Notes: a model not told the origin generated them from the letters alone. A DNA stretch of 64,000 nt from Syntrophaceae bacterium UBA6252 (GCA_002441265.1 DJVQ01000036.1:37057-101056), one strand, 5' to 3'. Shown: positions 6,065 through 36,416, counted from the stretch's first letter. A program made the numbers and translations.

Positions 6065-6677
6065 AATGGATCGGTTTTCCGAGGCGGTTCCAGCGGGGGG
6101 AATTGTCCTCGCTGTCCCAGGACCAGTAGATGATGAAGGCCTTGCCAAGGATGTCCTTCCGGTCCACGAAGCCCCAGAAACGGCTGTCGTAGCTCTGGTC
6201 GCGGTTGTCCCCCATGACGAAAACGGTTCCATCGGGGACCTTGACCGGCCCGAAGTTGTCTCTCGGCTGGATGGTTTTCGGAATGACGAGATTGTCCGTG
6301 TACACCCCGTAGGGATCGTCGAAAGGCTCGTCGTTCACGTAGACTTTCTTGTCGCGGACTTCCACCGTGTCCCCGGGGATCCCGATGACCCGCTTGATGA
6401 AGTCCTTGCTCCTGTCCAGGGGGTAGATGAAGACGATGGTGTCGCCCCGCTTCGGATCGCTGACGGGGATCAGCGTGGATCGCAGAACGGGGATCTTCAC
6501 GCCGTAGATGAACTTGTTCACCAGGAGCCAGTCCCCCACGAGAAGGGTCGGTTTCATCGATCCCGACGGGATTTTGAATGCCTGGACGACGAAGGTCCGG
6601 ATGAACAGGGCGATCAGGACGGCGATCAGGATGGCTTTTCCGTATTCGATCACTACGGAGGATCTGCTTTTTACCAC
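6063..6677 (-). CDS. lepB: Signal peptidase I
   Basis: 204 aa. N-terminal TM helix, catalytic SGSMKPTL box, and GDNRDQSYDSR box. Confidence 0.92.
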   Translation of the reverse strand: MVKSRSSVVIEYGKAILIAVLIALFIRTFVVQAFKIPSGSMKPTLLVGDWLLVNKFIYGVKIPVLRSTLIPVSDPKRGDTIVFIYPLDRSKDFIKRVIGIPGDTVEVRDKKVYVNDEPFDDPYGVYTDNLVIPKTIQPRDNFGPVKVPDGTVFVMGDNRDQSYDSRFWGFVDRKDILGKAFIIYWSWDSEDNSPRWNRLGKPIH

Positions 6678-6690
6678 TGGTTTCTCCTCT

Positions 6691-7176
6691 TTACGTCGGC
6701 GCGTAGATCGTTGACAGGGTGACGATGATCATGACGATCGCCAGGCTGCCTTTCAGGGCGGTCTGGGCGGTGGAGAAGAGGATGTTTCTCCACCCGTTCC
6801 GGAAGGCCGGTTTCAGGCGAAGGTCTTCGATGATCCGGAAGAAAAGGGTTCCGGCAAGCCCCCCCAGGTAGAATCCGAGAAAAAGTCCGAGACCCTGGAG
6901 GGAGGGGTAAAGAAAACACGCCCCCGCCACCGCGGCCGCAAGAACGGCGAAAAAATACCTCACGGTAAGGGGAAGCGGCTTGTGCATTCCCAGGGAGGTC
7001 AGCCAGAAGTCGCCCCCCTCCGCGGCTGCGACCATGAGGAGGAGGGCGGCAAGAACGGTGAAGCCGACGGGGGCGAAGCTCGTCCAGATGGCGAAGACGA
7101 AGGTGTCCACAAAAATGACGACCGTTCCGGGGAGGCCGAAGTTGATGAGAAAGATCCCCAGGAACAGAAAAGCCAT
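6691..7176 (-). CDS. DUF456-like small integral membrane protein
   Basis: This is the C-terminal part of the over-extended ORF 6691-7665. The first ATG at 7176 gives a 161-aa, four-helix hydrophobic protein (MAFLFLGIFLINFGLPGTVVIF...). The start is uncertain. Confidence 0.65.
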   Translation of the reverse strand: MAFLFLGIFLINFGLPGTVVIFVDTFVFAIWTSFAPVGFTVLAALLLMVAAAEGGDFWLTSLGMHKPLPLTVRYFFAVLAAAVAGACFLYPSLQGLGLFLGFYLGGLAGTLFFRIIEDLRLKPAFRNGWRNILFSTAQTALKGSLAIVMIIVTLSTIYAPT

Positions 7177-7214
7177 GAACAGGGTGTATCCCGCGGTTTC
7201 GATGGAAGACAAGG

Positions 7215-8132
7215 CTACCTTTTTTTCTTCTCTTTTGCCGGCCTTGCCTGTTCCCATGCGAGAACGATGGGGCTGGCGATGAATATGGAGGAATAGGTTC
7301 CCACGGCGATGCCGACGATCAGGGCGAAGGCGAAGTCGCGGATGACGGCGCCGCCGAGAAAGAAGAGGGCGAGGACGACGAGAAGGGTGGTTCCCGCCGT
7401 GAGGAGCGTGCGGCTCAGGGTCTGGTTGATGCTTCCGTTGATGATTCCCCTCAGCTCGCCCCGGATGTTCGCCCTGCGGTTTTCCCGGATCCGGTCGAAG
7501 ACGACGATGGTGTCGTTCAGGGAGTACCCGATGATCGTCAGGAGCGCCGCGACGATGGGCAGCGTGAATTCCAGGTTCAGGAGGGAGAAGATCCCCACGG
7601 TGATGAAGACGTCGTGGATGAGGGCGACCACGGCGCCGATGCCGTACCGGAACTCGAACCGCCACGTGATGTAGATCAGGATGCCGATGATCGCGTAGAG
7701 GATCGAAAGCAGCCCTTTCTCCCTGAGGTCCTTGCCCACCTTCGGTCCCACCATTTCCACCCGCCGGACTTCGAAATCCCCCTTTGTGAAGGTTTTTGCC
7801 AGCGCGTCCTCGAGGGTGTCGGAAAATCCTTTCAGCTCCGACGTGGACAACGGGGTTTTCACGAGGTATTCGTTCTCTTCGTATCCGAATCTCTGGATGA
7901 CGCTGTCCTGGAGATTCACGGGCTTCAGGGCCTCGCGGATCTGCTCGACCGTCGTCGGTTTCTGGAACTTGAGCTGGACCAGCGTTCCCCCGGCGAAGTC
8001 GATTCCCATGTTGAGGCCGCCGTGGATGAGGATGGAAACGATGCTGACGGCGATCACGAAGAGGGACAGGGAGAAGGCCATCTTCATCCTGCCAACGAAA
8101 TTGATGTTCGTCCCCGGTTTGATGAGTTCCAT
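7215..8132 (-). CDS. secF: Protein translocase subunit SecF
   Basis: 305 aa with typical SecF TM topology and GIDFAGGT motif. Directly downstream of secD. Confidence 0.93.
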   Translation of the reverse strand: MELIKPGTNINFVGRMKMAFSLSLFVIAVSIVSILIHGGLNMGIDFAGGTLVQLKFQKPTTVEQIREALKPVNLQDSVIQRFGYEENEYLVKTPLSTSELKGFSDTLEDALAKTFTKGDFEVRRVEMVGPKVGKDLREKGLLSILYAIIGILIYITWRFEFRYGIGAVVALIHDVFITVGIFSLLNLEFTLPIVAALLTIIGYSLNDTIVVFDRIRENRRANIRGELRGIINGSINQTLSRTLLTAGTTLLVVLALFFLGGAVIRDFAFALIVGIAVGTYSSIFIASPIVLAWEQARPAKEKKKR

Positions 8133-8153
8133 GAGAGTCTCCTGCGCTGTTGT

Positions 8154-9755
8154 CTAAATGCTTACCGTCTTGATTTTCCGGAACCAGAGAAGGTAGTCGA
8201 AGAAGATCCTGGTCACGAAAATGGCCGTGAACATGCTGCAGATGATACCGATGCTCAGGGTGACGGCGAACCCCTTCACGGGACCCGTTCCAAACTGGAA
8301 GAGGACGACGGCGGCAATGAGCGTGGTCACGTTGGCGTCGATGATGGTCATGAGCGCCCTGGAATAACCGGCGGCGACGGCCGCGCTGGCCGATTTTCCG
8401 ACGCGGATTTCCTCACGGATGCGCTCGAAGATGAGCACGTTGGCATCCACGGCCATGCCGATGGTGAGGACGATGCCGGCGATGCCCGGCAGGGTGAGGG
8501 TCGCCCCGAAGGCGGCCAGGGCCGCCATGATGAGAATGACGTTCAGAATCAGCGCCACGTTGGCGATGACACCCGATACGCGGTAGTAAAGAATCATGAA
8601 GAAGACGACGAGAATGCCTCCCACGATGATGGACAGGAATCCTTTCTCGATGGAATCCTGGCCGAGGGAGGGTCCCACCGTCCTCTGCTCGAGGATTTTC
8701 ACGGGGGCGGGAAGCGCGCCCGCCCGAAGGACGATGGCGAGGTCCCGGGCTTCGTCCATGGTGAAGGTGCCGGTGATCTGGGCTTCACCGCCGGCGATCT
8801 TTTCCTGGATGACCGGGGCGGAGTGCACCACGCCGTCGAGGACGATGGCGAGCCGTCTTTTCACGTTCTCCCCGGTGATCCGTTCGAAATCCCGGGCTCC
8901 CTGGGAGTTGAACTTCAGGCCCACGTAGGGTTCCCCGAAACGGTCGCTGATTTTCACTGTTGCGTTTTCAAGGGCGTCCCCCGTCAGGGCGGCCTTCGAC
9001 TTCAGGAGATAGGGCGTTCTCACCCGCTGCCCCGTCTGGCGGTTCATCACCGTTCCGTAGTAAACGGCGCTTCCCTCGGGGATGTTGCCTTTCAGGGCCT
9101 CGTCGAGCGACCCCTCCTCGTCCACCAGGTGGAATTCGAGGAGCGCCGTTTTCCCGATGAGATTGATCGCCCGCCTCGGGTCCTTGATCCCCGGCAGCTG
9201 CACGAGGATCCGGTCCGTCCCCTGGGGGACGATTTCCGGTTCCGTGACGCCGAACTGGTCGATCCGGTTCCGGATCGTTTCCAGGCTCTGGTCGATGGCG
9301 AACTTCCGGATGTCGTCGGCGTTGGCCTTCCGGAACTGGAGCGTCACCGTTTCCTTCCCGTCGGTGAAGTCGGAGGACTGGATCTCCAGGTTGGGGAAGA
9401 GGTCCGCCAGGATTTTACGGAAGGTGTCCCCTTCCTCCCTTCCGGGAAGCTCGAGGGACAGGGTCTTCCCCTCGTGAACGGCGAAGGCCCGAAAGCGGAG
9501 GTTCCGTTCCATGAGGACGTCCTTCAGGTCGCTCCCCGCCCGGGTGAGGGCGTTTTCCATGGCCTTTTCCGTGTCGACCTCGAGGACGAGGTGCATCCCT
9601 CCCTGGAGGTCGAGGCCCAGATGGATCTTGTCGTGGGGGAGATAGGATTTCCAGAAGTCGGGAAGACGGTCCGTCAGGGAGGGGGTCAGGTAGAACAGAC
9701 CCGCCAGCGCGATGAGAACCGCGAGAATACCTCTCCACTTGATGCTTGAGGCCAT
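8154..9755 (-). CDS. secD: Protein translocase subunit SecD
   Basis: 533 aa. LGLDLQGG motif, large periplasmic domain and C-terminal 6-TM region. Confidence 0.93.
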   Translation of the reverse strand: MASSIKWRGILAVLIALAGLFYLTPSLTDRLPDFWKSYLPHDKIHLGLDLQGGMHLVLEVDTEKAMENALTRAGSDLKDVLMERNLRFRAFAVHEGKTLSLELPGREEGDTFRKILADLFPNLEIQSSDFTDGKETVTLQFRKANADDIRKFAIDQSLETIRNRIDQFGVTEPEIVPQGTDRILVQLPGIKDPRRAINLIGKTALLEFHLVDEEGSLDEALKGNIPEGSAVYYGTVMNRQTGQRVRTPYLLKSKAALTGDALENATVKISDRFGEPYVGLKFNSQGARDFERITGENVKRRLAIVLDGVVHSAPVIQEKIAGGEAQITGTFTMDEARDLAIVLRAGALPAPVKILEQRTVGPSLGQDSIEKGFLSIIVGGILVVFFMILYYRVSGVIANVALILNVILIMAALAAFGATLTLPGIAGIVLTIGMAVDANVLIFERIREEIRVGKSASAAVAAGYSRALMTIIDANVTTLIAAVVLFQFGTGPVKGFAVTLSIGIICSMFTAIFVTRIFFDYLLWFRKIKTVSI

Positions 9756-9778
9756 GACTGAAATCCCTTTCCGCCCGG

Positions 9779-10105
9779 TTATTCCTTCGGTGCCTTCTGG
9801 GTGACCGTGGCGATGTGATTTTTCGAAACCTTGACGCGGACCTTGTCCGCGATCTCTACGGTTACAATGGCGTCGGTGATGCCGGTGACCTTACCGTGGA
9901 GCCCCCCCACGGTGACCACCATGTCCCCGTGGCCCAGGCTGCCCAGCATGTCCTTGACCGCTTTCTGCCTTTTCTGCTGCGGCCGGATGAGCAGGAAATA
10001 GAAGATGGCGAAAATGGCCGCCATGAGGATGATGAAATGGTATTCCCCGCCCGGCGCCGTACCGCCCTGTCCCCCAGCACCCATTGCATACGCAATGCCG
10101 ATCAT
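9779..10105 (-). CDS. yajC: Preprotein translocase subunit YajC
   Basis: 108 aa. Single TM helix followed by RPQQKRQK and GDMVVTVGGLHGKV motifs. Confidence 0.9.
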   Translation of the reverse strand: MIGIAYAMGAGGQGGTAPGGEYHFIILMAAIFAIFYFLLIRPQQKRQKAVKDMLGSLGHGDMVVTVGGLHGKVTGITDAIVTVEIADKVRVKVSKNHIATVTQKAPKE

Positions 10106-10108
10106 GAT

Positions 10109-11422
<1,314 letters not shown>

Positions 11423-11424
<2 letters not shown>

Positions 11425-12460
11425 AGAGAATGAGCATGGCGTCGCCGTAACTGTAAAACCGGAATCCCTCCTCGACGGCCCGCCCGTATGCCCGGAGCAT
11501 GAGTTCCCTCCCGGCGAAGGCGCACACGAGGAGGAACAGGGAGGACCGGGGAAGGTGAAAATTCGTGAGGAGCCGGTCCACCCGGCGGAAGGGGAAGCCC
11601 GGGTAAATGTACAGATCGGTGGAACCGCGGAGGGAGAGGGGCCCTCCCGGATTGCGGAAGACCGTCTCGATCACCCGGGTGGACGTGGTCCCCACGGCGG
11701 TGACCCGCCGCGCCTCCCGGAGCCTTTCCAGGGTCTCCTCCGTCATTTCGAACGATTCCGGTTCCATCCGGTGTTCCTCCACCATTTCCGTTTCCACGGG
11801 CTGGAACGTTCCCAGCCCCACGTGAAGGGTGATCCGGGCCGTTTCCGCGCCCCTTCTCCCGATTTCCCCGAGGGTTCTCTCCGTGAAATGAAGCCCCGCC
11901 GTGGGGGCGGCGACGGAGCCGGCCACCCTGGCGTACACCGTCTGGTACCGCTCGAGATCGAGGCCGCGGAGCCCCTCCTTTCCCGTCCTCCGGATGTAGG
12001 GGGGAAGGGGCGCCTGTCCCTCCCGCTCGAGGAAGCGCTCGAAGGGCTCCCCGGTGTCGAAACGGAGCACCCAGCACTTCGGCGACACCCTCGAAATCAC
12101 TTCCGCCCGGGGGCGGCCGGTGAAATAAAGCCTTGTGCCTTCGCGGACCCTCTTCCCCGGCCGGAGGAGCACCTCCCACTCGCAGGAATCGACGGAATCG
12201 GAGATCTTCCGCAGGAGGAGGATTTCGACGGCGCCCCCCGATTCCTTCCGCGCGGCGAGCCGTGCGGGGATGACCTTCGATTCGTTCAGAACGAGGAGAT
12301 CGCCCGGCCCGAAGTACTCCGCCACGTCGGGAAAAGTCCGGCAGGCGACGGTTCCCGTCGCCCGGTGGACCACCATGAGCCGGGAACCGTCCCGGTCGGG
12401 AAGGGGGGTCTGGGCGATGAGCGCCTCGGGAAGGGGAAAATCGAAATCCTGGAGTCTCAT
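11423..12460 (-). CDS. queA: S-adenosylmethionine:tRNA ribosyltransferase-isomerase
   Basis: The longest ORF is over-extended to 12655. The ATG at 12460 gives 345 aa starting MRLQDFDFPLPEALIAQTP, a canonical QueA N-terminus. Confidence 0.93.
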
Positions 12461-12480
12461 GGGTGCGCCGGGAAAGGGGT

Positions 12481-12669
12481 TCATCCCCTTCTTGCAAAGA
12501 AAACGAGGACGAGCCCGCCGAGGACGGCCAGCAGACCGAAAACCCGCAACTGTCCGTCGGAGAACTCCATGACCTTGAGGAGATACGATTTCATCCGTTC
12601 GGGACTGATGAACCAGGGAAGCCCTTCCAGGAAGAGCACGAGCCCGAGGGCGCAAAGAAACAGTTCCAT
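12481..12669 (-). CDS. DUF2065-like small membrane protein
   Basis: 62 aa with two hydrophobic helices (MELFLCALGLVLFLEGLPWFISP...). Packed with zero gap after the mazG stop. Confidence 0.7.
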   Translation of the reverse strand: MELFLCALGLVLFLEGLPWFISPERMKSYLLKVMEFSDGQLRVFGLLAVLGGLVLVFFARRG

Positions 12670-13482
12670 TTACTTTCGCGGGATTCCTTCTTCCTTTTTA
12701 TATTGGTCCCACAGGGCGTCCATCTCCTCCAGGGTCGACGACCGGGGGTCCTTTCCCCGCTCCTTCAGGGTCTTCTCGATCCGAAGGAAACGGCGGACGA
12801 ATTTGTCCGTCGCCTCGTGGAGCGCCTCCTCCCCGTCTGCGGGGAGAAACCGGGAAAGGTTGACCAGGGAGAAGAGAAGGTCCCCGATCTCCTCCCTCTC
12901 GGCCGGCGGGGAGCCCGATTCCACGGCTTTTTCCAGTTCCCCCAGCTCCTCCCGGACCTTTTCCAGGACCCCCCGTTTGTCCTTCCAGTCGAATCCCACC
13001 GCCGAGGCCCGCTCCGTGACGGCCCGGGCGCGGCGAAGGGCGGGCAGGGAGCGGGGGATGCCGTCGAAGAAGCCCGCCGTTTTCTCCTTCTTCTCGCGGG
13101 CCTTGATGGCCTCCCAGTTTTCCCGGACCTCCTCCACGGAATCGACCCGGACGTCCCCGAACACGTGGGGATGCCGGCGGATCATCTTTTCCGAGATTCC
13201 CCGGAGAACGTCCTCCAGGGTGAATTCGTTTTCCTCCTCATAGAGGCGCACGAGAAAAAGGATCTGGAACAGGAGATCGCCCAGTTCCTCCCGGGCCTCT
13301 CCGGGGTCGCCCCCGCGGACGGCGTCCACCGCCTCGCAGGCCTCGTCCTGCAGGTACCGGAGGAGATCTTCCTTCCGCTGCTTCCGGTCCCAGGGGCAGC
13401 CTCCGGGCGACCGGAGCCTCCCGATGATTCCCAGAAGGGCGTCGAGAGAGCCTCCGGAAGGCCTGTTTCGATCTTTTTCCAT
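12670..13482 (-). CDS. mazG: Nucleoside triphosphate pyrophosphohydrolase MazG
   Basis: Tandem MazG domains (CPWDRKQ, EEAYE-like EACEAVDA, second repeat EELGELEKAV). The start chosen at 13482 gives 270 aa; upstream in-frame ATGs also exist, so the start is uncertain. Confidence 0.85.
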   Translation of the reverse strand: MEKDRNRPSGGSLDALLGIIGRLRSPGGCPWDRKQRKEDLLRYLQDEACEAVDAVRGGDPGEAREELGDLLFQILFLVRLYEEENEFTLEDVLRGISEKMIRRHPHVFGDVRVDSVEEVRENWEAIKAREKKEKTAGFFDGIPRSLPALRRARAVTERASAVGFDWKDKRGVLEKVREELGELEKAVESGSPPAEREEIGDLLFSLVNLSRFLPADGEEALHEATDKFVRRFLRIEKTLKERGKDPRSSTLEEMDALWDQYKKEEGIPRK

Positions 13483-13660
13483 CCTCCGCGATCCCGGTTC
13501 GTTCCCGTTTCTCAACATATTTACGGCGGGTCCTGAATAACACGGATTCCCTCCCCGTGTCAAAATGCAGTTCCCGAATAATTGCATCCTCCCCCCTGTT
13601 TCAACTTGATTTTTCGAGGTGAAGGTGTTAAGCAATCATGTTCTTAATGCTCGAAACTTG

Positions 13661-13927: not shown

Positions 13928-15601
13928 ATGGCTGAAGAAAGAAAGAAGATGACCCGGGCCGAACGGCTCGAGGCGGAAAGGGAAGCCAACCTCAAACACT
14001 GGCTGGAGCAGGACGAGCTTCTCTTCAAACACAGGGAAGAATCCTACGATATCGGCGGTCAGCCGCAGGTCGAACGGCTTGCGAAACAGAAAAAGAAACC
14101 GGTCAGACAGCTCATCACCCAGCTCGTTGACCCCGGCGAGGAATTCTTCGAAATCGGTCAGGATTGCGGCTACGACATCGGGAAGGTCCGTCTTTACGGC
14201 GGAGAAATCTACGACTCGGAGAAGAGGGGGCATATCCCCGGCGGCGGAATGGTGACGGGTGTCGGCAAGGTCCACGGCAAGGACTGCATGATTTTCGGAA
14301 ACGAGAACCGCTATGCCGCGGGCACCTACTTCCCCATCACCCTGAAGAAACACATGCGGGCCCAGGCGATCGCCGAGGCGAGCCGGCTGCCCTGCATCTA
14401 CATCGCCGACTCCGGCGGAATCAACCTGCCCCTCCAGGTGGGCTGCTTCGCCGATGACGGTCATTTCGGCTCCATGTTCTACAACATGTGCCGCATGTCC
14501 GCCATGGGAATCAAGCAGTACACCCTCTCCACGGGCGGGAACACGGCGGGCGGCGCCTACATCGTCTACCTCGCCACGGAATCGATCATGATCGAGAAGA
14601 TGTCCTTCGCCTTCCTGGCCGGCCCCCCCATGGTGAAGTCGGCCATCGGCGAAACCGTTTCCCCGGAAGACCTGGGCGGCGCCTACGTTCACACCCAGCA
14701 CTCGGGCGGTTGCGACCACTTCGTCCGGAGCCAGGATGAGGGGATCCAGAAACTCAGGGACATCATGGAGTTCGAGCCCTCCCAGTCGCTGTACACCGAC
14801 CGGAGGGAGACGCGGCCCCCCAAGTTCGACTACAAGGAAATGATGCGGGGCACCCCCGTCGACACCTACAAGTACATCAACATCAAGGACACCATCAAGT
14901 GTCTTGCCGACGACAGCTATTTCCATGAGTACAAACCCACCTACGGGCCCGGCCGCGGCGACGCGATCATCGCCGGGAAGATGTGGATGAAGGGTATTCC
15001 CGTGGGCGTCGTGGCTTCCAACGCCAGCGGCGTCATCTACATCGACGCGGCGAGAAAAGCCACCGAGTGGATGATCCGCTGCGGGAACTCGAACCTCCCC
15101 GTCCTCTTCCTCCAGGGCTCGCCTGGTTACATGGTGGGCAAGGCCGAGGAATGGGGCGGCATCGGCAAGTACGGTTCCGACATGGTCCGTGCGTGCTCCT
15201 GCCTCAAGAGCCCCAAGGTCACCTACGTCATCGGCCCCGACCACGGCGCCGCCAACTACGGCATGTGCGGCAGGGCTTTCCGTCCGAAATTCGCCTTCAC
15301 GAACATGAGAGGGCGCACGACCGTCATGTCCGGCGAAACGGCGGGCTTCATCGTGGAAACGGTCCGCAGGAAGAACATCATCGACAAGGGCCAGACGGTG
15401 GACGAAGAAGACATGAAGAAATTCCGCCAGATGATGAGAGACCGGTACGACGCGGAAGGGCATCCCTTCTACACCGGCTCCATCAATTTCCACGACGGCG
15501 TCATCGCCTTCAGCGAGGCCCGGGACAAGCTGGCGAGAGCGTTTGAAATCGCCCTTCGCGTGCCCGTCGAAAGCTCCGACTGGGGCGACCTCAAATTGTA
15601 A
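13928..15601 (+). CDS. Acyl-CoA carboxyltransferase (methylcrotonyl-CoA carboxylase beta / glutaconyl-CoA decarboxylase alpha family)
   Basis: 557 aa from the ATG preceded by AGGAGGAGGA. Two crotonase-like carboxyl-transferase halves (GGGMVTGVGKVHG, ADSGGINLP, GPDHGAANYGMCG). Confidence 0.88.
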   Translation: MAEERKKMTRAERLEAEREANLKHWLEQDELLFKHREESYDIGGQPQVERLAKQKKKPVRQLITQLVDPGEEFFEIGQDCGYDIGKVRLYGGEIYDSEKRGHIPGGGMVTGVGKVHGKDCMIFGNENRYAAGTYFPITLKKHMRAQAIAEASRLPCIYIADSGGINLPLQVGCFADDGHFGSMFYNMCRMSAMGIKQYTLSTGGNTAGGAYIVYLATESIMIEKMSFAFLAGPPMVKSAIGETVSPEDLGGAYVHTQHSGGCDHFVRSQDEGIQKLRDIMEFEPSQSLYTDRRETRPPKFDYKEMMRGTPVDTYKYINIKDTIKCLADDSYFHEYKPTYGPGRGDAIIAGKMWMKGIPVGVVASNASGVIYIDAARKATEWMIRCGNSNLPVLFLQGSPGYMVGKAEEWGGIGKYGSDMVRACSCLKSPKVTYVIGPDHGAANYGMCGRAFRPKFAFTNMRGRTTVMSGETAGFIVETVRRKNIIDKGQTVDEEDMKKFRQMMRDRYDAEGHPFYTGSINFHDGVIAFSEARDKLARAFEIALRVPVESSDWGDLKL

Positions 15602-15613
15602 GTTTCCAACAAG

Positions 15614-15649
15614 AAACGGCGGCGGAATCGATTTTCCGCCGCCGTTTTT
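15614..15649 (+). terminator. Hairpin plus T-tract between the carboxyltransferase and hydratase genes
   Basis: AAACGGCGGCGGA-loop-TCCGCCGCCGTTT followed by TTC; the stem is 13 bp. Confidence 0.5.
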
Positions 15650-15697
15650 CAAACCGTTCAACAGCTTTTTTTCATACGATAAAAAAGGAGCCCAGCC

Positions 15698-16498
15698 ATG
15701 GCAGACGTACTCTTACAGGAAAGGACGGACGACGGCATCCTGATCCTGACGCTGAATCGTCCCGATGCTATGAACTGTTTCAATTTCGATCTTCTCGCGG
15801 TGCTGGGAGAGGCCATCCGGGAAGCGAACTTCGATATGAATCTCCGGTGCATCGTCATCACCGGAGCGAAAGCGGGCGAAGAGCCCAAGAAGTGGTCCTT
15901 CTCCACGGGGGCGGACCTCAAGGAAAGACGGACGCTCTCCCAGGATCAGGTCCGCCGGTTCATCTTCACCATCCGGAACACCTTCACGGCGGTGGAGCAG
16001 GTCCGGGTTCCCGTCATCGCGGCTATCAACGGGTTTGCCTTCGGCGGCGGGACGGAACTGGCCCTCGCCTGCGACCTTCGGATCTGTTCGTCCAACGTCC
16101 TCATGGGACTGACCGAAACGAGCCTGGCCATCATTCCCGGCGCCGGCGGAACCCAGCGTCTTCCGAGAATCGTCGGGATGGCGAAGGCGAAGGAACTGAT
16201 CTACACGGCCCGCAGGATCGATGCGAAGACGGCCCTGGAAGTCGGCCTCGTGTGCAAGGTCGTGGAGCCGGACAAGCTCATGGATGCCGCCCTCGAACTG
16301 GCCCGGGAAATCGCGAAGAACGGCCCCATCGGCGTGGCCCAGGCGAAATTCGCCATCAACTACGGCATGGAAGCGAGCCTCGGCGTGGCACTGCCTCTCG
16401 AATCCAAGGCCTATGAAGTCACCATTCCCACGAAGGACCGCCTGGAGGCCCTGGCCGCCTTTGTGGAGAAGAGAAAACCCGTTTTCAAGGGTGAATGA
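15698..16498 (+). CDS. Enoyl-CoA hydratase (methylglutaconyl-CoA hydratase-like)
   Basis: 266 aa crotonase fold. AAINGFAFGGGTELALACD oxyanion-hole motif and GLTETSLAIIPGAGGTQRLPR. RBS AAGGAG. Confidence 0.9.
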   Translation: MADVLLQERTDDGILILTLNRPDAMNCFNFDLLAVLGEAIREANFDMNLRCIVITGAKAGEEPKKWSFSTGADLKERRTLSQDQVRRFIFTIRNTFTAVEQVRVPVIAAINGFAFGGGTELALACDLRICSSNVLMGLTETSLAIIPGAGGTQRLPRIVGMAKAKELIYTARRIDAKTALEVGLVCKVVEPDKLMDAALELAREIAKNGPIGVAQAKFAINYGMEASLGVALPLESKAYEVTIPTKDRLEALAAFVEKRKPVFKGE

Positions 16499-16544
16499 AC
16501 GAAGCGTTCGTCCTTGATTATAACAACGCAGGAGGAAGGATTTT

Positions 16545-17735
16545 ATGGCAACGGAATATGATTACTGGAAGATTTTCCCGAGAATGCCGAAAAAGGTAAG
16601 CATCGGGGACATCACAATCCGTGATGGGTTCCAGCATGAAGAGAGATTCATCTCGACCCAGGCGAAGATTTTCTATGGCCAGGAAAGCATTCTGGCGGGC
16701 TGCCGGGAGCTCGAGGTGACCAACATGGCCGCCGGCACGACCCCCCAGTTCGTGGACGGCGCCGAAGTCATGAAGGCGATGCGGAGCGACGAGTTCCGGA
16801 AACGGGCCTCCCGCCAGGGCATCGATCTGGACAAGGACGTCTGCCTGACGGCCGTGACGATCCGCGAGCCCTCGGTGGACAAGGCCATTCAGTGGAGGAA
16901 GGAAGGGTATGGTCCCGACCGTATCCTCATGATGGTTTCCACGGACCCGGAACACCATTTTGCCAATTCCGGATCCACCCTGACCCAGTACTGGCGCGAA
17001 GCGGAGAAGTGCATCAAGAAAGCCCGCGATGCCGGGATGAAGATGGTCGGCACCGTGAGCACGATCTGGGGAAGCCCCATCAGCGGCGCCACGAAACTGC
17101 AGGATGCCGTGGAGTTCACGAAGCGCTGGTTCGAAATCGGCGCCCATGACATCGAGCACGCCGACCACGACGGCTCGGCCAACGCCGCCGACGTGTACCG
17201 GTATTTCTCGATGATCCTCGACGCCATGCCGAACCCTGAAGCCCACCTGTGCCACCTCCATGAAACGAAGCGGGTTGCCTCGTCGTCCATCCTGGCGGCG
17301 CTCCATGCGGGGATCACCCGGTTCGAAGCGACCTTCGGCGGCCTCGGCGGCCAGCCGGCCAACTTCCTCGACGATTGTCCCATCCGGGGCACCGGCGAGT
17401 ACTACTATGACGATCCCCGGTATGTCGGTCTCATCTGCCTGGAAGACCTTCTCGTCCAGGTCGACGAACTCGGCATCGAGCACGGATATGACGTGGACCG
17501 CATCCTGTGGCTGGGCCGGAAGATGGAGAAGACCATCGGCCGCCGGCTCCGCTCCGAGGCGGTCATCAACGGCAGGACCCAGAAGGCGGGCCACATGAAG
17601 TTCGCCCGGCCGGGCCTGAAGAAACTCATCGATAAGCTGGGTGAGAAGCAGGGCCAGCGGGTTCCCCCCGACTGGAAGGCGGAAGCGGTTCTTCCCGAGA
17701 ACTGGGGTCCCTCGGATCCGCTCTGGAAGAAATAA
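16545..17735 (+). CDS. Divergent HMGL-like (DRE-TIM) lyase-family protein with a C-terminal extension
   Basis: 396 aa. It has IRDGFQHE, HLHET and GGLGGQP motifs; the corresponding lyase motif is GGLGGCP. Confidence 0.8.
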   Translation: MATEYDYWKIFPRMPKKVSIGDITIRDGFQHEERFISTQAKIFYGQESILAGCRELEVTNMAAGTTPQFVDGAEVMKAMRSDEFRKRASRQGIDLDKDVCLTAVTIREPSVDKAIQWRKEGYGPDRILMMVSTDPEHHFANSGSTLTQYWREAEKCIKKARDAGMKMVGTVSTIWGSPISGATKLQDAVEFTKRWFEIGAHDIEHADHDGSANAADVYRYFSMILDAMPNPEAHLCHLHETKRVASSSILAALHAGITRFEATFGGLGGQPANFLDDCPIRGTGEYYYDDPRYVGLICLEDLLVQVDELGIEHGYDVDRILWLGRKMEKTIGRRLRSEAVINGRTQKAGHMKFARPGLKKLIDKLGEKQGQRVPPDWKAEAVLPENWGPSDPLWKK

Positions 17736-17752
17736 CAGGGATGCAAGACAAC

Positions 17753-17780
17753 GGGCGGGGGAACGCCCCCGCCCGCTTTT
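17753..17780 (+). terminator. GC-rich hairpin plus T-tract after the HMGL-like gene
   Basis: GGGCGGGGG-AACG-CCCCCGCCC followed by GCTTTT. Confidence 0.55.
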
Positions 17781-17869
17781 AACCTGTGACGCGATCATTC
17801 GAGTGCCCCTTCGTTTTCCGTCGAGAGCACTCACGAATATGTGAAATAATGTTGAAGGAGGATGTTCCA

Positions 17870-18085
17870 ATGGCAGTTGAAGTCGTAGCCCCCATGCCCG
17901 GCACGATCGCCGAGATTCTAGTGGAAGTGGGAGACAATGTCAGGACCGATGAGGAACTCATCATTCTCGAGGCGATGAAGATGGAAAATCCCATCGTTGC
18001 CCCCGCCGACGGCACCGTCAAGGAAATCAAGGTTGCCGAAGAGGACAAGGTGGACACGAACCAGGTCCTGCTCGTCCTGGAGTAA
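17870..18085 (+). CDS. Biotin carboxyl carrier (biotinyl-domain-only protein, 71 aa)
   Basis: EAMKMEN biotinylation motif. The ATG at 17870 is preceded by GAAGGAGGA. The track ORF starts earlier, at 17786. Confidence 0.85.
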   Translation: MAVEVVAPMPGTIAEILVEVGDNVRTDEELIILEAMKMENPIVAPADGTVKEIKVAEEDKVDTNQVLLVLE

Positions 18086-18114
18086 TTTTTTTCAGGATAA
18101 AGGAGTCATCACGG

Positions 18115-18158
18115 TATGCCGGGAGGATCTGCACGGGTTCTCCCGGCATACTTGTTTC
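18115..18158 (+). terminator. Hairpin after the biotin carrier gene
   Basis: TATGCCGGGAG-N14-CTCCCGGCATA followed by CTTGTTTC, a weak U-tract. Confidence 0.45.
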
Positions 18159-18180
18159 AGGATACCGGTTGTCTTATAAT
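18152..18180 (+). promoter_or_regulatory. Candidate sigma70 promoter for the HMG-CoA lyase gene
   Basis: TTGTTT-N17-TATAAT, ending 33 nt upstream of the ATG at 18213. Confidence 0.4.
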
Positions 18181-18212
18181 GGTTCCCCGGGAAGAGGAAT
18201 CGCGGATCTTCA

Positions 18213-19151
18213 ATGGTTTCCATGACTGGAAAAAAAGAGAACATGCTGCCGGCGTCCGTGGCGATTCATGAGGTCGTTCTCAGGGACGGGATCCAGAACG
18301 AGCCCGTCCCGGTTCCGACGGACCGGAAACTCGACCTCCTGGACGGCCTCGTCCGTTCGGGGGTGGGCAGGATCGAACTCTCCTCTTTCGTCAATCCGCG
18401 CCTCGTCCCCCAGATGGCCGACGCGGAGGCTCTCTGGGAGCGGGTGGAGCGGCGTCCCGGCCTTCTTCTTTCCGCCCTGGTCCTCGGGGAAAAGAGCCTG
18501 GAACGGGCCATCCGATGCCGGGTTCCCCACGTGGGGATTTTCGTGTCCGCCAGCGAGACCCACAGCCTCCGGAACAGCAACCGCACGGTGGCGGAAGCGG
18601 CGGGCGAGGCGCTTCGCCTCATCGACAGGGCCAGGTCCCGGGGGATGCAGGTCCGGGCCGGCGTGATGAATGCCTTCGGATGCGCCTACGAGGGGGCGGT
18701 GCCCGTCGATCGCGTGCTCGGGCTCGTAGACCGCTTCATGACCCTTTCGCCGGACGAGATCTGTCTCGCCGACACCTCCGGCATGGGATATCCGGCGCAG
18801 GTGGGAGAGGTGATCGCCCGGGTCCGGGCCGTCGCGGGGGACGTCTCTCTGTCCCTTCACCTCCACAACACCCGGGGGCTCGGTCTCGCCAATCTCTGGG
18901 AGGCCCTTCGCCGGGGCGTGGCGATCTTCGACACCTCCCTGGGAGGTCTGGGGGGCTGTCCCTTCATCCCCGGGGCGAAGGGGAACATCGCCACGGAGGA
19001 TACGGTTCACATGCTCCATCTGTCGCATGTCGCCACGGGCATCCGCCTCGAATCCCTCGTCGAGGCGAGCCGGTCGTTCGAGTCCTTCATGAAGAAGGAA
19101 TTCCCCGCCATGATTCTTCACCTGCCGGACTCCGGCGCCTGCGAATCGTAG
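18213..19151 (+). CDS. Hydroxymethylglutaryl-CoA lyase
   Basis: 312 aa. LRDGIQNE, HLHNTRGLGLAN and GGLGGCPFIPGAKGN motifs. The start could be one of the downstream in-frame ATGs (M4 or M11). Confidence 0.88.
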   Translation: MVSMTGKKENMLPASVAIHEVVLRDGIQNEPVPVPTDRKLDLLDGLVRSGVGRIELSSFVNPRLVPQMADAEALWERVERRPGLLLSALVLGEKSLERAIRCRVPHVGIFVSASETHSLRNSNRTVAEAAGEALRLIDRARSRGMQVRAGVMNAFGCAYEGAVPVDRVLGLVDRFMTLSPDEICLADTSGMGYPAQVGEVIARVRAVAGDVSLSLHLHNTRGLGLANLWEALRRGVAIFDTSLGGLGGCPFIPGAKGNIATEDTVHMLHLSHVATGIRLESLVEASRSFESFMKKEFPAMILHLPDSGACES

Positions 19152-25004: not shown

Positions 25005-25540
25005 TTGTATCACAGGCGGTGGGGGACCGTCAATTTCCCCGAGTCAGCTTTTCCTTGACTTGGCGGGCTTTTTTCTGTATGCCGAAGACGTTACACAATC
25101 CCCGCCATAATAAATTTAGGACATTCGGAACTGATCGAACACTCCCGTTTCCAGGGAACGGCTGGACTCGGGACATAGCGTTGGAGGAAAGGTGACTCCT
25201 TTCGGATTCGTCCCTGTGGTCCGTCATCGAGCCTTTTTGTGTCCGTTACTCCCCGTGACGCCGACCGTCCCCCTTTATTCCCTGAAATCCGAAATCTGTG
25301 CGCAAGCACCTCCATCCAAGTGCTTCCGGGAAGACCTGCATCATGAGAAAGGCTTTCATCCCGCGGGGAGCAAACCCGCCCCGCGGAAGGAAATCCCCGG
25401 GTTTGGGAAGGAGGTGACAGGCGTCGCGTGATGACATCAGGGGGATGTCCGCCGTTCCCCCCGTTCCAGGAAACAAGGGAAATCGTGACAGAACAGCGGA
25501 CGATTGATTTTTCAGAACGCGAATGTATTAGGAGGTGATT

Positions 25541-26941
25541 ATGTTATCCGGTATCGGCCGCTTTTTTGCGGAAAAATTCAGAAGATGGCTTCCTGACTCG
25601 TTTATTTTCGCTATTTTGCTGACCTTTCTCGCGGCAATCATGGCGCTCCTGTTCGTGAAGGCGACGCCTCACGCCATCGTTCAGGGATGGTACAAGGGGT
25701 TCTGGATGCTCCTGGGCTTCGCCATGCAGATGATTCTCATCCTCGTTACGGGATACGCCATCGCCATATCCCCTCCGGCGGAGAAGTTCCTCAACTGGCT
25801 CGCGGAACGGGTAAAGAGCCCTGTCGCCGTATACGCCGTCGTGACGTTCATGGGCTGCGTCTTCTCCCTCATCAGTTGGGGCTGGATCGTCCTCACGGCG
25901 GTCCTGGGGAGGGAACTTGCGAAGAGGGTGAAGAAAGTGGATTACAGGCTTCTGGCCGCCTGCGTCTACACGGCGTTCATCCCGTGGCACGGCGGACTGT
26001 CCGGTTCGATCCCCCTCGTCCTCAACACGCCGGAAAACTTTCTCATCAAGGCCAAGGTCCTCGGGGAGACCATCCCCACGTCCCTGACCCTTCTGAGCCC
26101 CATGAACATCGTCTGCAACCTGGCGTTTCTCATCGCTCTTCCCGCCCTGATGGTCATGATGCGGCCCTCCGATGAGCATGTGACGGAATTTTCCGACATG
26201 CTCGACGAGGAGCACAAGTTCGCGAAACCCGTTACCGTGGCGGATGAGGCCGCGTCCCTGAACATGAAGGACAAGAACCTTTCCGACCTCCTGAACAACA
26301 GCGTGATCCTTCAGGTCCTCATTGTTCTCATGGGCGCGTGGATCATCGTGGAGCACTTCTACGGCAAGGGTTTCGACGTCAACCTGAACATCATGAACTT
26401 CCTGTTCATCATCGTGGGGATGCTCTGCCACAAAACGCCCCTCCGTTACCTGATCGCCATGAAGAGGGCCTGCAGCAACGTTTCCGGCATCGTTCTCCAG
26501 TTTCCCTTCTATGCCGGCATCATGGGGATCATGATGTACACGGGTCTCGGGAAGGCCATCGCCGCCTGGCTCGCGGGCTTCGCGACGGTCGGCAGCTACC
26601 CCTTCATCTGCTTCATCATCGGGGGATTCGTGAACATCTTCATCCCCTCGGGCGGCGGCGAGTGGGCCGTGGTCGGCCAGCCGATCATCGAGGCCGCGAG
26701 GACCCTGGGCGCCACCCTGTCCCCGGACCAGCTGACGGCGTTCATCTCCCGCTCCAGCATGGCCATCGCCTACGGCGACGCGTGGACGAACATGATCCAG
26801 CCCTTCTGGACCCTGGCGTTCTTCCCCGTCATCGCGGCGGGGACCAAGATGCAGGCCAGGGACATCATGGGATACACCTTCGTGTCGCTGATCGTTGCTT
26901 TCTTCGTGTTTGCCATCTGCGTCACGTGGCTGCCCGTCTAA
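25541..26941 (+). CDS. atoE: Short-chain fatty acid transporter AtoE family
   Basis: The ATG lies 5 nt after AGGAGG. The multi-TM protein has RWLPDSFIFAILLT, QFPFYAGIMG and PSGGGEW blocks, colinear with E. coli AtoE as I recall it. Confidence 0.9.
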   Translation: MLSGIGRFFAEKFRRWLPDSFIFAILLTFLAAIMALLFVKATPHAIVQGWYKGFWMLLGFAMQMILILVTGYAIAISPPAEKFLNWLAERVKSPVAVYAVVTFMGCVFSLISWGWIVLTAVLGRELAKRVKKVDYRLLAACVYTAFIPWHGGLSGSIPLVLNTPENFLIKAKVLGETIPTSLTLLSPMNIVCNLAFLIALPALMVMMRPSDEHVTEFSDMLDEEHKFAKPVTVADEAASLNMKDKNLSDLLNNSVILQVLIVLMGAWIIVEHFYGKGFDVNLNIMNFLFIIVGMLCHKTPLRYLIAMKRACSNVSGIVLQFPFYAGIMGIMMYTGLGKAIAAWLAGFATVGSYPFICFIIGGFVNIFIPSGGGEWAVVGQPIIEAARTLGATLSPDQLTAFISRSSMAIAYGDAWTNMIQPFWTLAFFPVIAAGTKMQARDIMGYTFVSLIVAFFVFAICVTWLPV

Positions 26942-27092
26942 AAACGTTTTCTTCCGTCCGGACCCGGGGCCCGCGTTCCTGCGGGCCCCGGCTTCCCGGG
27001 CCGGTCTCCCGCGGCCGGATCCCGCGATCCGGCGGCCCCGTCCCGCGAAAAAAAAGAAACCGGAAGCCGGCTTGAAAGAAGCCGCCGTCTTT

Positions 27093-27253
27093 GACGAACT
27101 CGTAAAAGACAAGACACCCCTTTTTTCTAACGGCAAAGGAAAAAGCTCCAGAGGCAAGGCGCCCGAATCGCGACGACCGAGGCGTACTTCCGGTACGCCG
27201 CAGGGACGAGGGATGAAGGGGAACGCAGGATATGGGGCTTTTTACGAAACCGC
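27093..27253. repeat. Rep-A interspersed repeat, full copy
   Basis: GACGAACTCGTAAAAG ... GGGGCTTTTTACGAAACCGCC. Core and hairpin GGCGTAC-TTCCG-GTACGCC (27181-27199) are conserved. Confidence 0.8.
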
Positions 27254-28137: not shown

Positions 28138-28141
28138 AATC

Positions 28142-36411: not shown

Positions 36412-36416
36412 GTTTC

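Follow-up and report, generated by a model that had tools for sequence, protein, structure and literature searches.

The conserved five-gene cluster analysed here encodes a carboxyltransferase (CT), a hydratase, two proteins with the HMG-CoA lyase fold and a 71-aa biotin carrier, and we regard it, with about even confidence, as a Liu-type methylcrotonyl-CoA carboxylase module of Syntrophales that would serve leucine/isovalerate catabolism and borrow its biotin carboxylase (BC) in trans. The first of the two lyase-like proteins, here called HMGL-X, is a constant partner of the CT, an association missed in the preliminary description of this DNA. The window, i.e. the whole stretch analysed (64,000 nucleotides), comes from Syntrophaceae bacterium UBA6252, whose 3.3-Mb genome is 100% complete by marker genes. 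Profile scores and reading of the gene starts confirmed that all five genes are present and co-directional on the + strand, where they had been placed (Table 1), and the earlier interpretation of the cluster as a whole was partly supported. The module bears on how energy-starved anaerobes pay for carboxylation.

Table 1. Features of the cluster and the associated CoA-transferase genes, in positions of the window
Feature	Position	Strand	Evidence
MccB-family carboxyltransferase (CT1), 557 aa	13928..15601	+	PF01039 306 bits
16-bp hairpin then U-run, between CT and hydratase genes	15612..15649	+	RNA fold -34.4 kcal/mol, z -5.8 vs shuffles
AUH/LiuC-type 3-methylglutaconyl-CoA hydratase (crotonase fold), 266 aa	15698..16498	+	PF00378 204 bits
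HMGL-X, divergent HMG-CoA-lyase-fold protein, 396 aa	16545..17735	+	PF00682 70 bits; alignments; AF2 model
GC-rich 10-bp hairpin then CUUUU, 3' of HMGL-X	17752..17775	+	RNA fold -28.5 kcal/mol, z -3.4
Stand-alone 71-aa biotin carboxyl carrier, EAMKMEN	17870..18085	+	PF00364 73.7 bits
20-bp hairpin then UUGUUU, 3' of carrier gene	18111..18153	+	RNA fold -34.8 kcal/mol, z -4.7
Canonical HMG-CoA lyase, 312 aa	18213..19151	+	NF004283 293.6 bits; PF00682 138 bits
GctA/GctB-type CoA-transferase pair, 330 + 256 aa	38727..40508	+	PF01144; synteny in relatives

The true start of CT1 is the ATG at 13928, with an AGGAGG ribosome-binding site ahead, which gives 557 aa. The preliminary description had labelled the CT 'MCCase-beta / GcdA family' and had proposed that its placement be checked. 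By bit score to solved structures, CT1 was closest to MCC beta subunits (3u9r_B from P. aeruginosa, 371 bits; human MCCB, 368 bits), followed by GCC beta (257 bits), the 12S subunit (141 bits) and the GcdA structures (71-77 bits), which places CT1 in the MccB family and does not support the GcdA label. The hydratase matched human AUH (222 bits) and M. xanthus LiuC (213 bits) better than generic crotonase (~156 bits); its top solved match was 3kqf, presumably from a Bacillus species and annotated merely as an enoyl-CoA hydratase/isomerase family protein. Translation of the carrier from the ATG at 17870, behind a GGAGG ribosome-binding site, yields the 71-aa biotinyl protein with EAMKMEN read earlier; its EAMKM biotinylation motif is intact and is kept in 27 orthologues, and carrier orthologues lie downstream of HMGL-X in 36 of 76 informative loci. 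The canonical lyase passes the HMG-CoA lyase model NF004283 (293.6 bits vs a curated cut-off of 246 bits) and retains GGLGGCP and the metal-binding Asn in the alignment.

In the pathway that we propose, the MccB-type CT would carboxylate 3-methylcrotonyl-CoA at the gamma-methyl group with a carboxyl group supplied by carboxybiotin on the 71-aa carrier, and the AUH/LiuC-type hydratase would convert 3-methylglutaconyl-CoA to HMG-CoA. The nearness of the CT to MCC beta and of the hydratase to AUH/LiuC, a lyase above its cut-off and an intact carrier motif all point to a catabolic module, as do the dehydrogenase, transporter and CoA-transferase genes added to the clusters of relatives. A published precedent is Desulfococcus multivorans, where the products of an Ech-Mcc-HmgL-Acs cluster were formed during growth on isovalerate and under no other condition (PMC5109826).

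No BC was found within the 64-kb window, as had been reported; the ATP-grasp proteins there, at 28028-30250 and 34282-36411, were rejected as BCs, both being ADP-forming acyl-CoA synthetases. A genome-wide search for accC-like and gcdB/oadB-like genes, suggested in the preliminary description, returned two BCs, both outside the window on contigs C46 and C54, and no OAD_beta (PF03977), which extends the reported absence of a Na+-pump beta subunit to the whole source genome. The C46 protein is an AccA3-like BC-BCCP fusion of 589 aa without a BT domain; it aligns with mycobacterial AccA3 over its full length, and its BC part is equally close to the BCs of pyruvate/2-oxoglutarate carboxylases and to MccA. 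Because AccA/AccD were not found in the source genome, this fusion is the sole alpha subunit for the genome's one ACC/PCC-type CT, and it probably acts as the alpha subunit of a housekeeping acetyl-CoA carboxylase. The C54 protein is BC-only and PycA/CfiB-like. Neither is a dedicated MccA, and no MccA-type alpha subunit of BC-BT-BCCP architecture was found in the source genome. The earlier suggestion that the missing subunit is encoded elsewhere thus survives in a weak form, as BCs on other contigs; a BC-BCCP alpha subunit that clusters with MccA and is co-regulated with the locus was also envisaged, and the C46 fusion, with no BT domain and with unrelated genes around it, does not fit that picture.

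The carrier would most likely receive its carboxyl group in trans, at the expense of ATP, from one of these two BCs: either the BC-only C54 protein or the C46 alpha subunit, which would probably also serve the housekeeping PccB-type CT. Mycobacterial AccA3 is an alpha subunit common to several beta subunits, and it shows that a single alpha can work with more than one carboxyltransferase. The two BCs in the genome and the full-length likeness to AccA3 are consistent with such borrowing, as is a relative assembled in one contig (G007, 99% complete), in which biotin carriers are limited to an alpha subunit of 684 aa and a biotinyl domain within an open frame of 665 aa, so that its CT must draw on a carrier in trans. 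Against borrowing, the alpha-beta link of solved MCC and PCC holoenzymes is formed by a BT domain, which is missing from the C46 alpha, and, were the fused alpha to do the charging, a separate dedicated carrier would have no easy explanation. A BC is, moreover, never part of the module, some relatives lack one, and no dehydrogenase adjoins the cluster: no isovaleryl-CoA dehydrogenase was found within the window, and at least 15 acyl-CoA dehydrogenase genes lie elsewhere in the source genome. Syntrophic isovalerate oxidation gains ~1 ATP by substrate-level phosphorylation, so on general energetic reasoning ATP-dependent carboxylation would consume the whole gain.

This energy argument favours ATP-free carboxylation and with it a serious rival, to which we give a minor but real share of belief, namely an ATP-independent biotin cycle in which the carrier would take its carboxyl group from another donor or pass it to another acceptor. 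Oxaloacetate, via a PycB/5S-type domain, and methylmalonyl-/malonyl-CoA, via a PccB-type CT, are candidates; CT and carrier would then form a 3-methylcrotonyl-CoA transcarboxylase or, in OAD-beta-bearing relatives, a Na+-coupled carboxylase/decarboxylase. A BC was absent from the module in 80 of 80 related loci, and 13 of 88 module-bearing Syntrophales genomes had none over the family cut-off. For five of those 13, which are 99-100% complete, three separate BC queries found none, and these five keep the module, several CTs and small carriers. In each of them another protein could load the carrier: four have a 5S-like PYC_OADA protein and three have OAD_beta. One of the five (G079) comes from the family of the source genome and shares its five-gene set, and in G079 the OAD_beta gene lies beside a small carrier gene. 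Genome analysis has led to the proposal of transcarboxylases of this kind in the related anaerobe Geobacter bemidjiensis (PMC2996986). The five relatives therefore indicate that the module is not generally dependent on ATP-driven biotin carboxylation, although BC absence in metagenome-assembled genomes may stem from assembly gaps. The source genome itself, however, has two BCs and no OAD_beta, and the one 5S-like domain in it has a carrier of its own fused to it and a BC as partner. Transcarboxylation would also spare ATP only with ATP-free regeneration of the donor, for which isovalerate breakdown offers no evident cycle. The soluble decarboxylase and the transcarboxylase raised in the preliminary description, both candidates in the source genome, gain comparative support from module-keeping relatives without any BC.

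HMGL-X lies just downstream of an MccB-type CT in 70 of 77 informative related loci and was duplicated along with the CT in the source genome, where another contig carries a second paralogous set (MaoC, CT2, HMGL-X2) whose MaoC hydratase is R-specific. Its score with PF00682 is only 70 bits, and with NF004283 113 bits vs the cut-off of 246. Alignment showed GGLGGQP in place of the GGLGGCP of HMG-CoA lyase, loss of the loop Cys and of the metal-binding Asn (residues per PMC6941031), a ~20-aa insertion with DDCP and a ~60-aa C-terminal tail, with the Arg-Asp, Glu and His-x-His residues retained. The best structural matches of its AF2 model (pLDDT 93) were HMG-CoA lyases (TM 0.90-0.94), and 5S and PC domains matched far more poorly. 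Judged from alignment, model and a locus in a relative (G014, below) with no CT nearby, HMGL-X would most likely be an acyl-CoA lyase that needs a metal, descends from HMG-CoA lyase and differs from it in substrate or stereospecificity; with the loop Cys and the metal-binding Asn gone, lyase activity is inferred. It most likely works beside the canonical lyase and does not replace it. A canonical lyase over the cut-off was found in ~78 of 88 HMGL-X-positive vs ~17 of 63 HMGL-X-negative Syntrophales genomes, and second HMGL-like genes of three non-orthologous kinds have entered the cluster, which together argues for a joint demand for both lyases.

A way to meet this demand, which we consider improbable, would be for each lyase to have a substrate of its own in a single cycle or branch. 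HMGL-X would, for example, interconvert 3-hydroxyisovaleryl-CoA and acetone plus acetyl-CoA, and 3-methylcrotonyl-CoA would be the entry point for acetone/3-hydroxyisovalerate, from which, after carboxylation, the canonical lyase would release acetoacetate. In another version HMGL-X would take the other HMG-CoA stereoisomer. Every gene would then have a job, the co-occurrence of both DRE-TIM enzymes would be accounted for, and the R-specific MaoC hydratase of the second copy would fit, as would the G014 locus, in which the genes ahead of HMGL-X encode a TRAP transporter and an acyl-CoA ligase and neither a CT nor a carrier is nearby. In HMG-CoA lyase the free carboxylate of the substrate lies near the metal-binding Asn and loop Cys, the residues lost in HMGL-X. 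However, our literature search found no paper on a lyase of this kind, aldol addition to acetone is unfavourable, and some genomes (e.g. G013, 100% complete) have HMGL-X without a canonical lyase.

It is also quite improbable that HMGL-X is a second, 5S-like carboxyl-transfer site that would load or unload carboxybiotin, e.g. from a beta-keto acid, and so replace the BC. The module does lack a BC while holding an extra protein of the DRE-TIM superfamily, which takes in the carboxyltransferase domains of 5S, PC and OadA; HMGL-X is co-duplicated with the CT, and in a few genomes it adjoins PccB+PccA or PycA+PycB, biotin being the common factor of these neighbours. Yet a profile search found no PYC_OADA domain in HMGL-X, the position of the carbamylated Lys has no Lys (IEHADHDG vs IKNHAG in the PycB-like protein of the same genome), the modelled structure is far nearer to HMG-CoA lyases than to 5S or PC domains, the G014 copy stands apart from any CT or carrier, and the small carrier is absent in G007 and similar clusters. 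HMGL-X has the look of an acyl-CoA lyase whose specificity has changed, and not of a 5S-type subunit.

Neighbouring genes also speak for the catabolic module that we favour. One related cluster (L072) is extended by an acyl-CoA dehydrogenase, CoA-transferases, with a CoA_trans pair directly downstream of HMGL-X, and a sigma-54 activator; that of G007 is extended by a short-chain fatty acid transporter and a GctAB-like pair, of which the A subunit, an orthologue (71% identical) of the A subunit in the window, is encoded directly upstream of the CT cluster. The window also holds orthologues of the relatives' transporter and CoA-transferase genes, and its GctA/GctB-type pair probably belongs to the same pathway as the cluster. 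A soluble, biosynthetic decarboxylase after the model of the myxobacterial alternative pathway, which would run from HMG-CoA through 3-methylglutaconyl-CoA to 3-methylcrotonyl-CoA for isovaleryl-CoA/iso-fatty acids, with carboxybiotin discharged or handed on, would suit a cluster with neither BC nor membrane subunit and a GctAB/AibAB-family pair syntenic with it in relatives, but is very unlikely given the canonical HMG-CoA lyase, the catabolic neighbours in relatives and a CoA-transferase pair much nearer to glutaconate CoA-transferase (1POI, its nearest solved relative, 150/155 bits) than to AibA/B (80/70 bits).

RNA-library contigs from three anaerobic-digester/sludge studies covered all five genes of near-identical relatives and bridged each gap. 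A contig of a close relative (15388-15765) crosses the CT/hydratase gap, two others (17575-17937 and 17710-18084) cross the hairpin after HMGL-X, and one (18028-18732) crosses that after the carrier gene. Such contigs register presence only, with DNA carry-over possible, and give a weak hint that the cluster is expressed in relatives.

Among known systems, the Bacillus subtilis yng operon likewise clusters an MccB-type carboxyltransferase (YngE), a methylglutaconyl-CoA hydratase (YngF), an HMG-CoA lyase (YngG) and a tiny free carrier (YngHB, ~73 aa), but it has its own BC (YngH), whereas the Syntrophaceae cluster lacks a BC and adds HMGL-X. Mycobacteria have their own AccA1-AccD1 pair for MCC and no free small carrier, unlike the Syntrophaceae cluster; the C46 alpha (589 aa) nevertheless resembles mycobacterial AccA3 (PDB 30hu, 5mlk) over its full length. 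The Pseudomonas Liu pathway and human MCC (alpha6-beta6; 3U9R/3U9S, 8J4Z) provide the nearest beta subunits and the same logic of MCC, hydratase and HMG-CoA lyase; they have a dedicated BC-BT-BCCP alpha, whereas the source genome has no BT-domain alpha and its 71-aa carrier is free. By its published description, the EchA2, Mcc, HmgL and AcsA6 set of Desulfococcus multivorans (PMC5109826) is a similar hydratase/Mcc/lyase set in an anaerobic member of the Desulfobacterota. The Na+-translocating GcdABCD also joins a CT and a small carrier on a glutaconyl-type enoyl-CoA, but the source genome lacks its beta subunit and CT1 is remote from GcdA. Propionibacterium transcarboxylase (12S + 5S + 1.3S) and the Geobacter bemidjiensis clusters (PMC2996986) share with the cluster the combination of CT, DRE-TIM protein and small carrier without a BC, and the ATP-saving logic; in contrast to the Propionibacterium enzyme, the CT is MccB-type (371 bits to MCC beta vs 141 bits to 12S), and, unlike 5S, HMGL-X has neither the PYC_OADA domain nor the carbamyl-Lys motif.

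Profile searches and a read-through of the DNA recovered all five genes that the preliminary description had placed in the cluster (table). CT1, the carboxyltransferase, matched PF01039 with 306 bits over residues 112-564 of a 575-aa open reading frame. Reading of the DNA gave a start behind a GGAGG-type ribosome-binding site and a protein of 557 aa, within the about 530-565 aa typical of two-domain, crotonase-fold PF01039 carboxyltransferases. We compared CT1 with solved structures and found that it scored highest against the methylcrotonyl-CoA carboxylase (MCC) beta subunits of P. aeruginosa (371 bits) and human (MCCB, 368 bits), followed by geranyl-CoA carboxylase (GCC) beta (257 bits) and a lower tier of PCC beta (155 bits), 12S (141 bits) and GcdA (71-77 bits). 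By these scores CT1 is assigned to the MccB family, and the GcdA-type assignment suggested earlier was rejected. The hydratase matched PF00378 with 204 bits; it scored 222 bits against AUH and 213 bits against LiuC, the methylglutaconyl-CoA hydratases with which it groups, and about 156 bits against generic crotonases. The 71-aa carrier, with an EAMKMEN motif, also starts behind a GGAGG-type ribosome-binding site, and the last gene passed the HMG-CoA lyase model NF004283 with 293.6 bits (cut-off 246). Judged by these similarities, CT1, the hydratase and the canonical lyase are predicted to form the lower Liu pathway of MCC, hydratase and HMG-CoA lyase. Among the annotated ORFs of the window, mainly those of 1-40.5 kb, there was no isovaleryl-CoA dehydrogenase or other acyl-CoA dehydrogenase; elsewhere the source genome has at least 15 acyl-CoA dehydrogenase genes. 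Upstream of the cluster, a 654-aa ORF with high GC2 (0.57) matched no family and is probably a shadow ORF of a GC-rich genome. Antisense shadow ORFs from longest-ORF or GC3-based gene calling were replaced by hand-checked calls.

Coordinates of the features discussed, in the window and in other contigs and loci
Feature	Location	Coordinates	Strand	Remark
654-aa ORF	window	11279-13243	+	overlaps MazG gene
MazG gene	window	12670-13635	-	
CT1	window	13928-15601	+	ATG at 13928
Hydratase, AUH/LiuC type	window	15698-16498	+	
HMGL-X	window	16545-17735	+	
71-aa biotin carrier	window	17870-18085	+	ATG at 17870
Canonical HMG-CoA lyase	window	18213-19151	+	
Putative acid-handling block	window	25535-37439		
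GctA/GctB-type CoA-transferase pair	window	38727-40508		
MaoC dehydratase	C14 (locus L009)	6654-7217		
CT2	C14 (locus L009)	7276-8928		
HMGL-X2	C14 (locus L009)	9017-10198		
BC-only protein	C54 (locus L007)	7704-9158		
PycB-like protein	C54 (locus L007)	9173-11125		
Third kind of HMGL-like gene	L072	7159-8184		directly upstream of CT
DctP, DctQ-sized ORF, DctM, PaaK-like acyl-CoA ligase, then HMGL-X	L100 (G014, contig C6)	9329-15036	-	no CT nearby

RNA folding revealed strong hairpins 3' of the CT1, HMGL-X and carrier genes (z -5.8, -3.4 and -4.7), each followed by a U-run that was long after CT1 and short after HMGL-X and the carrier. A simple terminator scan gave sites no more numerous than expected by chance. 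In three digester or sludge studies, RNA-library contigs from near-identical relatives covered all five genes and bridged each gap. This is a hint of read-through expression, but such contigs are no proof of a single transcript and may reflect carry-over of DNA. No meaning was attached to stretches free of contig cover (e.g. 15640-16000 in two runs).

We then took stock of the biotin enzymes of the source genome (3.3 Mb in 70 contigs, 100% complete by marker genes), which is assigned to Syntrophales by the names that its homologues of more than 80% identity bear. Besides CT1, carboxyltransferases were found on contig C38 (PccB-like, 610 bits to PF01039) and on contig C14 (CT2, MccB-like and 56% identical to CT1). 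The preliminary description had seen no biotin carboxylase (BC) in the 64 kb. This held, with BC domains confined genome-wide to C46, which carries a 589-aa BC-BCCP fusion among unrelated genes, and C54, where a 484-aa BC-only protein precedes a PycB-like protein of 650 aa. Biotin carriers were the 71-aa protein of the window, the C46 alpha subunit and the PycB-like protein. The absence of a Na+-pumping beta subunit extended from the window to the whole genome, PF03977 being unmatched there and present in some relatives. Of the suggestion that the missing subunit is encoded elsewhere, one part stood: two BCs are available in trans, neither near the cluster. A dedicated MCC alpha subunit with BC, BT and BCCP domains was absent genome-wide. 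Nor was there the alpha subunit clustering with MccA that had been named as speaking against an unusual enzyme: the C46 alpha subunit matched neither BT_MCC_alpha nor PCC_BT, its BC part is equally close to pyruvate/2-oxoglutarate carboxylase BCs and to MccA, and its full-length matches are mycobacterial AccA3. Because no AccA/AccD-type acetyl-CoA carboxylase was found in the source genome, the C46 alpha subunit and the C38 carboxyltransferase probably form the housekeeping acetyl-CoA carboxylase. Unusual motifs mark the C54 PycB-like protein: TERDLSQ replaces RDGHQ, and IKNHAG and HYHGH are also present. The C46 BC scored 443 bits against the small subunit of 2-oxoglutarate carboxylase (7kbl) and looks by eye closely similar to the C54 BC, so the substrate of the C54 pair may be 2-oxoglutarate and not pyruvate. 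Our best reading of the cluster, which we hold with about even confidence, is an MCC module of the Liu type that would borrow a BC encoded outside the cluster to charge its free 71-aa carrier at the expense of ATP.

The module recurs within the genome and among relatives. Contig C14 has CT2 next to a MaoC dehydratase and to HMGL-X2 (393 aa, 74% identical to HMGL-X of the window), with no carrier or canonical lyase beside them; since paralogues of both stand together there, CT and HMGL-X have been duplicated as a pair. The 80 best loci with HMGL-X orthologues were fetched with flanks of up to 10 kb on each side; they come from Syntrophales, Smithellaceae and Syntrophobacteraceae, and the orthologues are 75-92% identical. 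An MccB-type CT lay on the same strand within 3 kb upstream of HMGL-X in 70 of 77 informative loci, and a hydratase was nearby in 67 of 77. A small carrier followed HMGL-X in 36 of 76 informative loci, and a second HMGL-like gene was found near it in 36 of 76; 9 of 76 had both and 13 of 76 had neither. Identity within the clusters was on a par for HMGL-X and CT (78-90%) and mostly 60-69% for the canonical lyase, reaching 77% in the closest. A BC fell inside the flanks at 4 of the 80 loci, where it belonged to a neighbouring PccB+PccA or PycA+PycB pair, and not to the module. Such links with other biotin enzymes were seen at L025, L027, L033 and L059: in a few genomes HMGL-X stands beside a PccB-like CT and an alpha subunit of 673-696 aa (BT domain shown for that of L033), and in one it comes immediately after PycA+PycB.

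Across 151 sampled Syntrophales genomes, HMGL-X was present in 88 and BC in 122, and 13 of the HMGL-X-positive genomes were missing a BC over the family cut-off. In five of 99-100% completeness (G014, G083, G134, G029 and G079), three separate queries found no BC: Biotin_carb_N, Biotin_carb_C over cut-off and a protein-level search that gave only CarB-like ATP-grasp matches. Biotin_carb_C matched G014 and G083 weakly, below cut-off (E about 1e-4), and gene absences from metagenome-assembled genomes may be assembly gaps. Each of these five genomes retains 2-6 CT matches alongside small free carriers and a 5S-like PYC_OADA protein and/or OAD beta. One of them, G079, from the family of the source genome, has the same five genes over two contig ends, plus a MaoC-CT2-ECH-HMGL-X set. 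It may be that these relatives rely wholly on transcarboxylases or on Na+-coupled biotin enzymes. In another relative, G007 (a single contig), carriers are limited to two: a 684-aa alpha subunit, encoded beside a PccB-like CT some 10 kb upstream of the cluster, and a 665-aa open frame with a biotinyl domain. The CT of the G007 cluster must therefore use a carrier in trans. The BC-less relatives and G007 therefore indicate that the module is not tied to any one way of charging biotin.

These genomes bear on the main rival to the borrowed BC, an ATP-independent biotin cycle run by a transcarboxylase or, in relatives, by a Na+-coupled enzyme. In its favour, no copy of the module carries a BC, some relatives lack BC altogether and, by our own reasoning, the syntrophic oxidation of isovalerate leaves very little energy to spend. 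A search for literature on a transcarboxylase acting with methylcrotonyl-CoA returned nothing relevant. We consider such a cycle rather improbable, yet a serious rival to the borrowed BC. In anaerobic digesters and sediments, leucine fermentation releases isovalerate as one of the major intermediates. Oxidising it syntrophically requires CO2 and yields very little energy, and textbook ATP-dependent carboxylation would spend about all the ATP that the pathway makes. A wider proposal is that Syntrophales carboxylate 3-methylcrotonyl-CoA free of ATP, the module and its free carrier acting as a transcarboxylase or an ion-gradient-coupled carboxylase, with the carrier charged by 5S-, PccB- or OAD-type partners and HMGL-X serving as an indispensable new acyl-CoA lyase or carboxyl-handling DRE-TIM enzyme. 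We regard this as speculative and rather improbable; if true, it would explain the net energy yield of syntrophic isovalerate oxidation. The module occurs in 88 of 151 Syntrophales genomes, never with a BC of its own, and is kept in BC-less genomes, which makes the carboxylation question directly testable.

HMGL-X, a divergent HMG-CoA-lyase-like protein of 396 aa, matched PF00682 weakly (70 bits) and stayed below the curated NF004283 cut-off of 246 (113 bits). The best matches of its AF2 model (pLDDT 93) were HMG-CoA lyases (TM 0.90-0.94 at 21-24% identity), and those to 5S, PC and OadA domains were far weaker (TM to target 0.37-0.48 for 5S and PC). In the alignment HMGL-X keeps R26, D27, E57, H237 and H239, the equivalents of HMG-CoA lyase Arg41/Asp42, Glu72 and His233/His235. 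In HMG-CoA lyase, Cys266 of the GGLGGCP loop is catalytic and Asn275 is a metal ligand (PMC6941031). HMGL-X reads GGLGGQP, with Gln at the position of the loop Cys, and has Leu at that of the metal-binding Asn; behind the loop some 20 aa are inserted, among them a conserved DDCP, and the protein ends in a conserved Lys-rich tail. Tyr167, which we take to be the human HMG-CoA lyase numbering, was dropped as a test residue, no Tyr being aligned there even in the canonical lyase of the window. Databases label HMGL-X 'HMG-CoA lyase' or 'pyruvate carboxyltransferase'; it is a strongly conserved, uncharacterised DRE-TIM enzyme that lacks two residues needed by the canonical lyase.

Canonical lyases over the NF004283 cut-off were found in about 78 of the 88 HMGL-X-positive genomes versus about 17 of the 63 HMGL-X-negative ones, and a few complete genomes, e.g. 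G013, have HMGL-X and no canonical lyase. The second HMGL-like genes of the clusters are of three non-orthologous kinds: a canonical type 60-77% identical, a canonical GGCP type 35% identical, and a degenerate PREG/HFYEN type. Because the two lyase types co-occur and second HMGL-like genes have been recruited into the cluster, HMGL-X is not a simple substitute for the canonical lyase. The third kind stands directly upstream of CT in Syntrophobacteraceae-like MAGs (L072, L073, L074, L076, L079, L085 and L088); its metal site is degenerate (PREG for PRDG, HFYEN for HxH) and the GGCP loop is absent, so that its role may be that of a partner without catalysis or of an enzyme with other chemistry. 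The gene order at L100, in one of the BC-less genomes, hints at an imported acid that, once activated with CoA, can be a substrate of HMGL-X, and this context fits an acyl-CoA lyase able to act alone. An ESM Atlas look-up returned a cluster of its own kind and nothing beyond, and the distant relatives P0124, P0134 and P0141 gave no functional hint, their contigs being either short or of unrelated gene content. Judged from sequence and structure model together, HMGL-X is most likely an acyl-CoA lyase of altered specificity.

Other roles are less likely. The two lyases could work in one cycle, via 3-hydroxyisovaleryl-CoA or the other HMG-CoA stereoisomer, which would explain the frequent co-occurrence of both; no papers linking acetone to 3-hydroxyisovaleryl-CoA were found. 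Also less likely is that the cluster is a biosynthetic soluble decarboxylase. The same goes for a 5S-like carboxyl-transfer site in HMGL-X, since two defining features fail, with PYC_OADA (PF02436) unmatched and the carbamylated Lys missing (IEHADHDG vs IKNHAG in the PycB-like protein of the source genome), and the structure match is weak. Fused forms of HMGL-X of 694-2000 aa were not found, which is weak evidence, and a complex prediction for HMGL-X and the 71-aa carrier, both given as alignments, scored 0.00, counting neither for nor against binding.

The Liu-type reading of the module extends to its neighbours, all functional statements on the cluster being drawn from sequence. The L072 cluster adds a sigma-54 activator, a CoA-transferase pair, an acyl-CoA dehydrogenase and an acetyl-CoA hydrolase/transferase, and G007 has a short-chain fatty acid transporter, an acetyl-CoA hydrolase/transferase and a GctAB-like pair directly upstream of CT. 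The GctA/GctB-type pair of the window scored 150 and 155 bits against Acidaminococcus glutaconate CoA-transferase and 80 and 70 bits against AibA/B, and its A subunit is 71% identical to the G007 counterpart. Because such pairs adjoin the cluster in G007 and L072, that of the window probably belongs to the same pathway. The window also holds two AtoE-like short-chain fatty acid transporters, two ADP-forming acyl-CoA synthetases, an acetyl-CoA hydrolase/transferase-GNAT fusion and a DRTGG/AAA_26 protein, which look like a block for acyl-CoA or acid handling and ATP gain by substrate-level phosphorylation. Together, the neighbouring genes suit a short branched acid that is taken up, activated and oxidised. 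The literature searched gave no papers on the HMG-CoA lyase of Syntrophus aciditrophicus or on isovalerate and HMG-CoA lyase in syntrophs, and no description of the variant found here, which lacks a dedicated BC and combines a free 71-aa carrier with an additional, obligatory DRE-TIM enzyme duplicated with CT. The pathway type itself is already known: in Desulfococcus multivorans, Ech, Mcc and HmgL proteins are formed specifically on isovalerate (PMC5109826), which agrees with an isovalerate role for the cluster described here.
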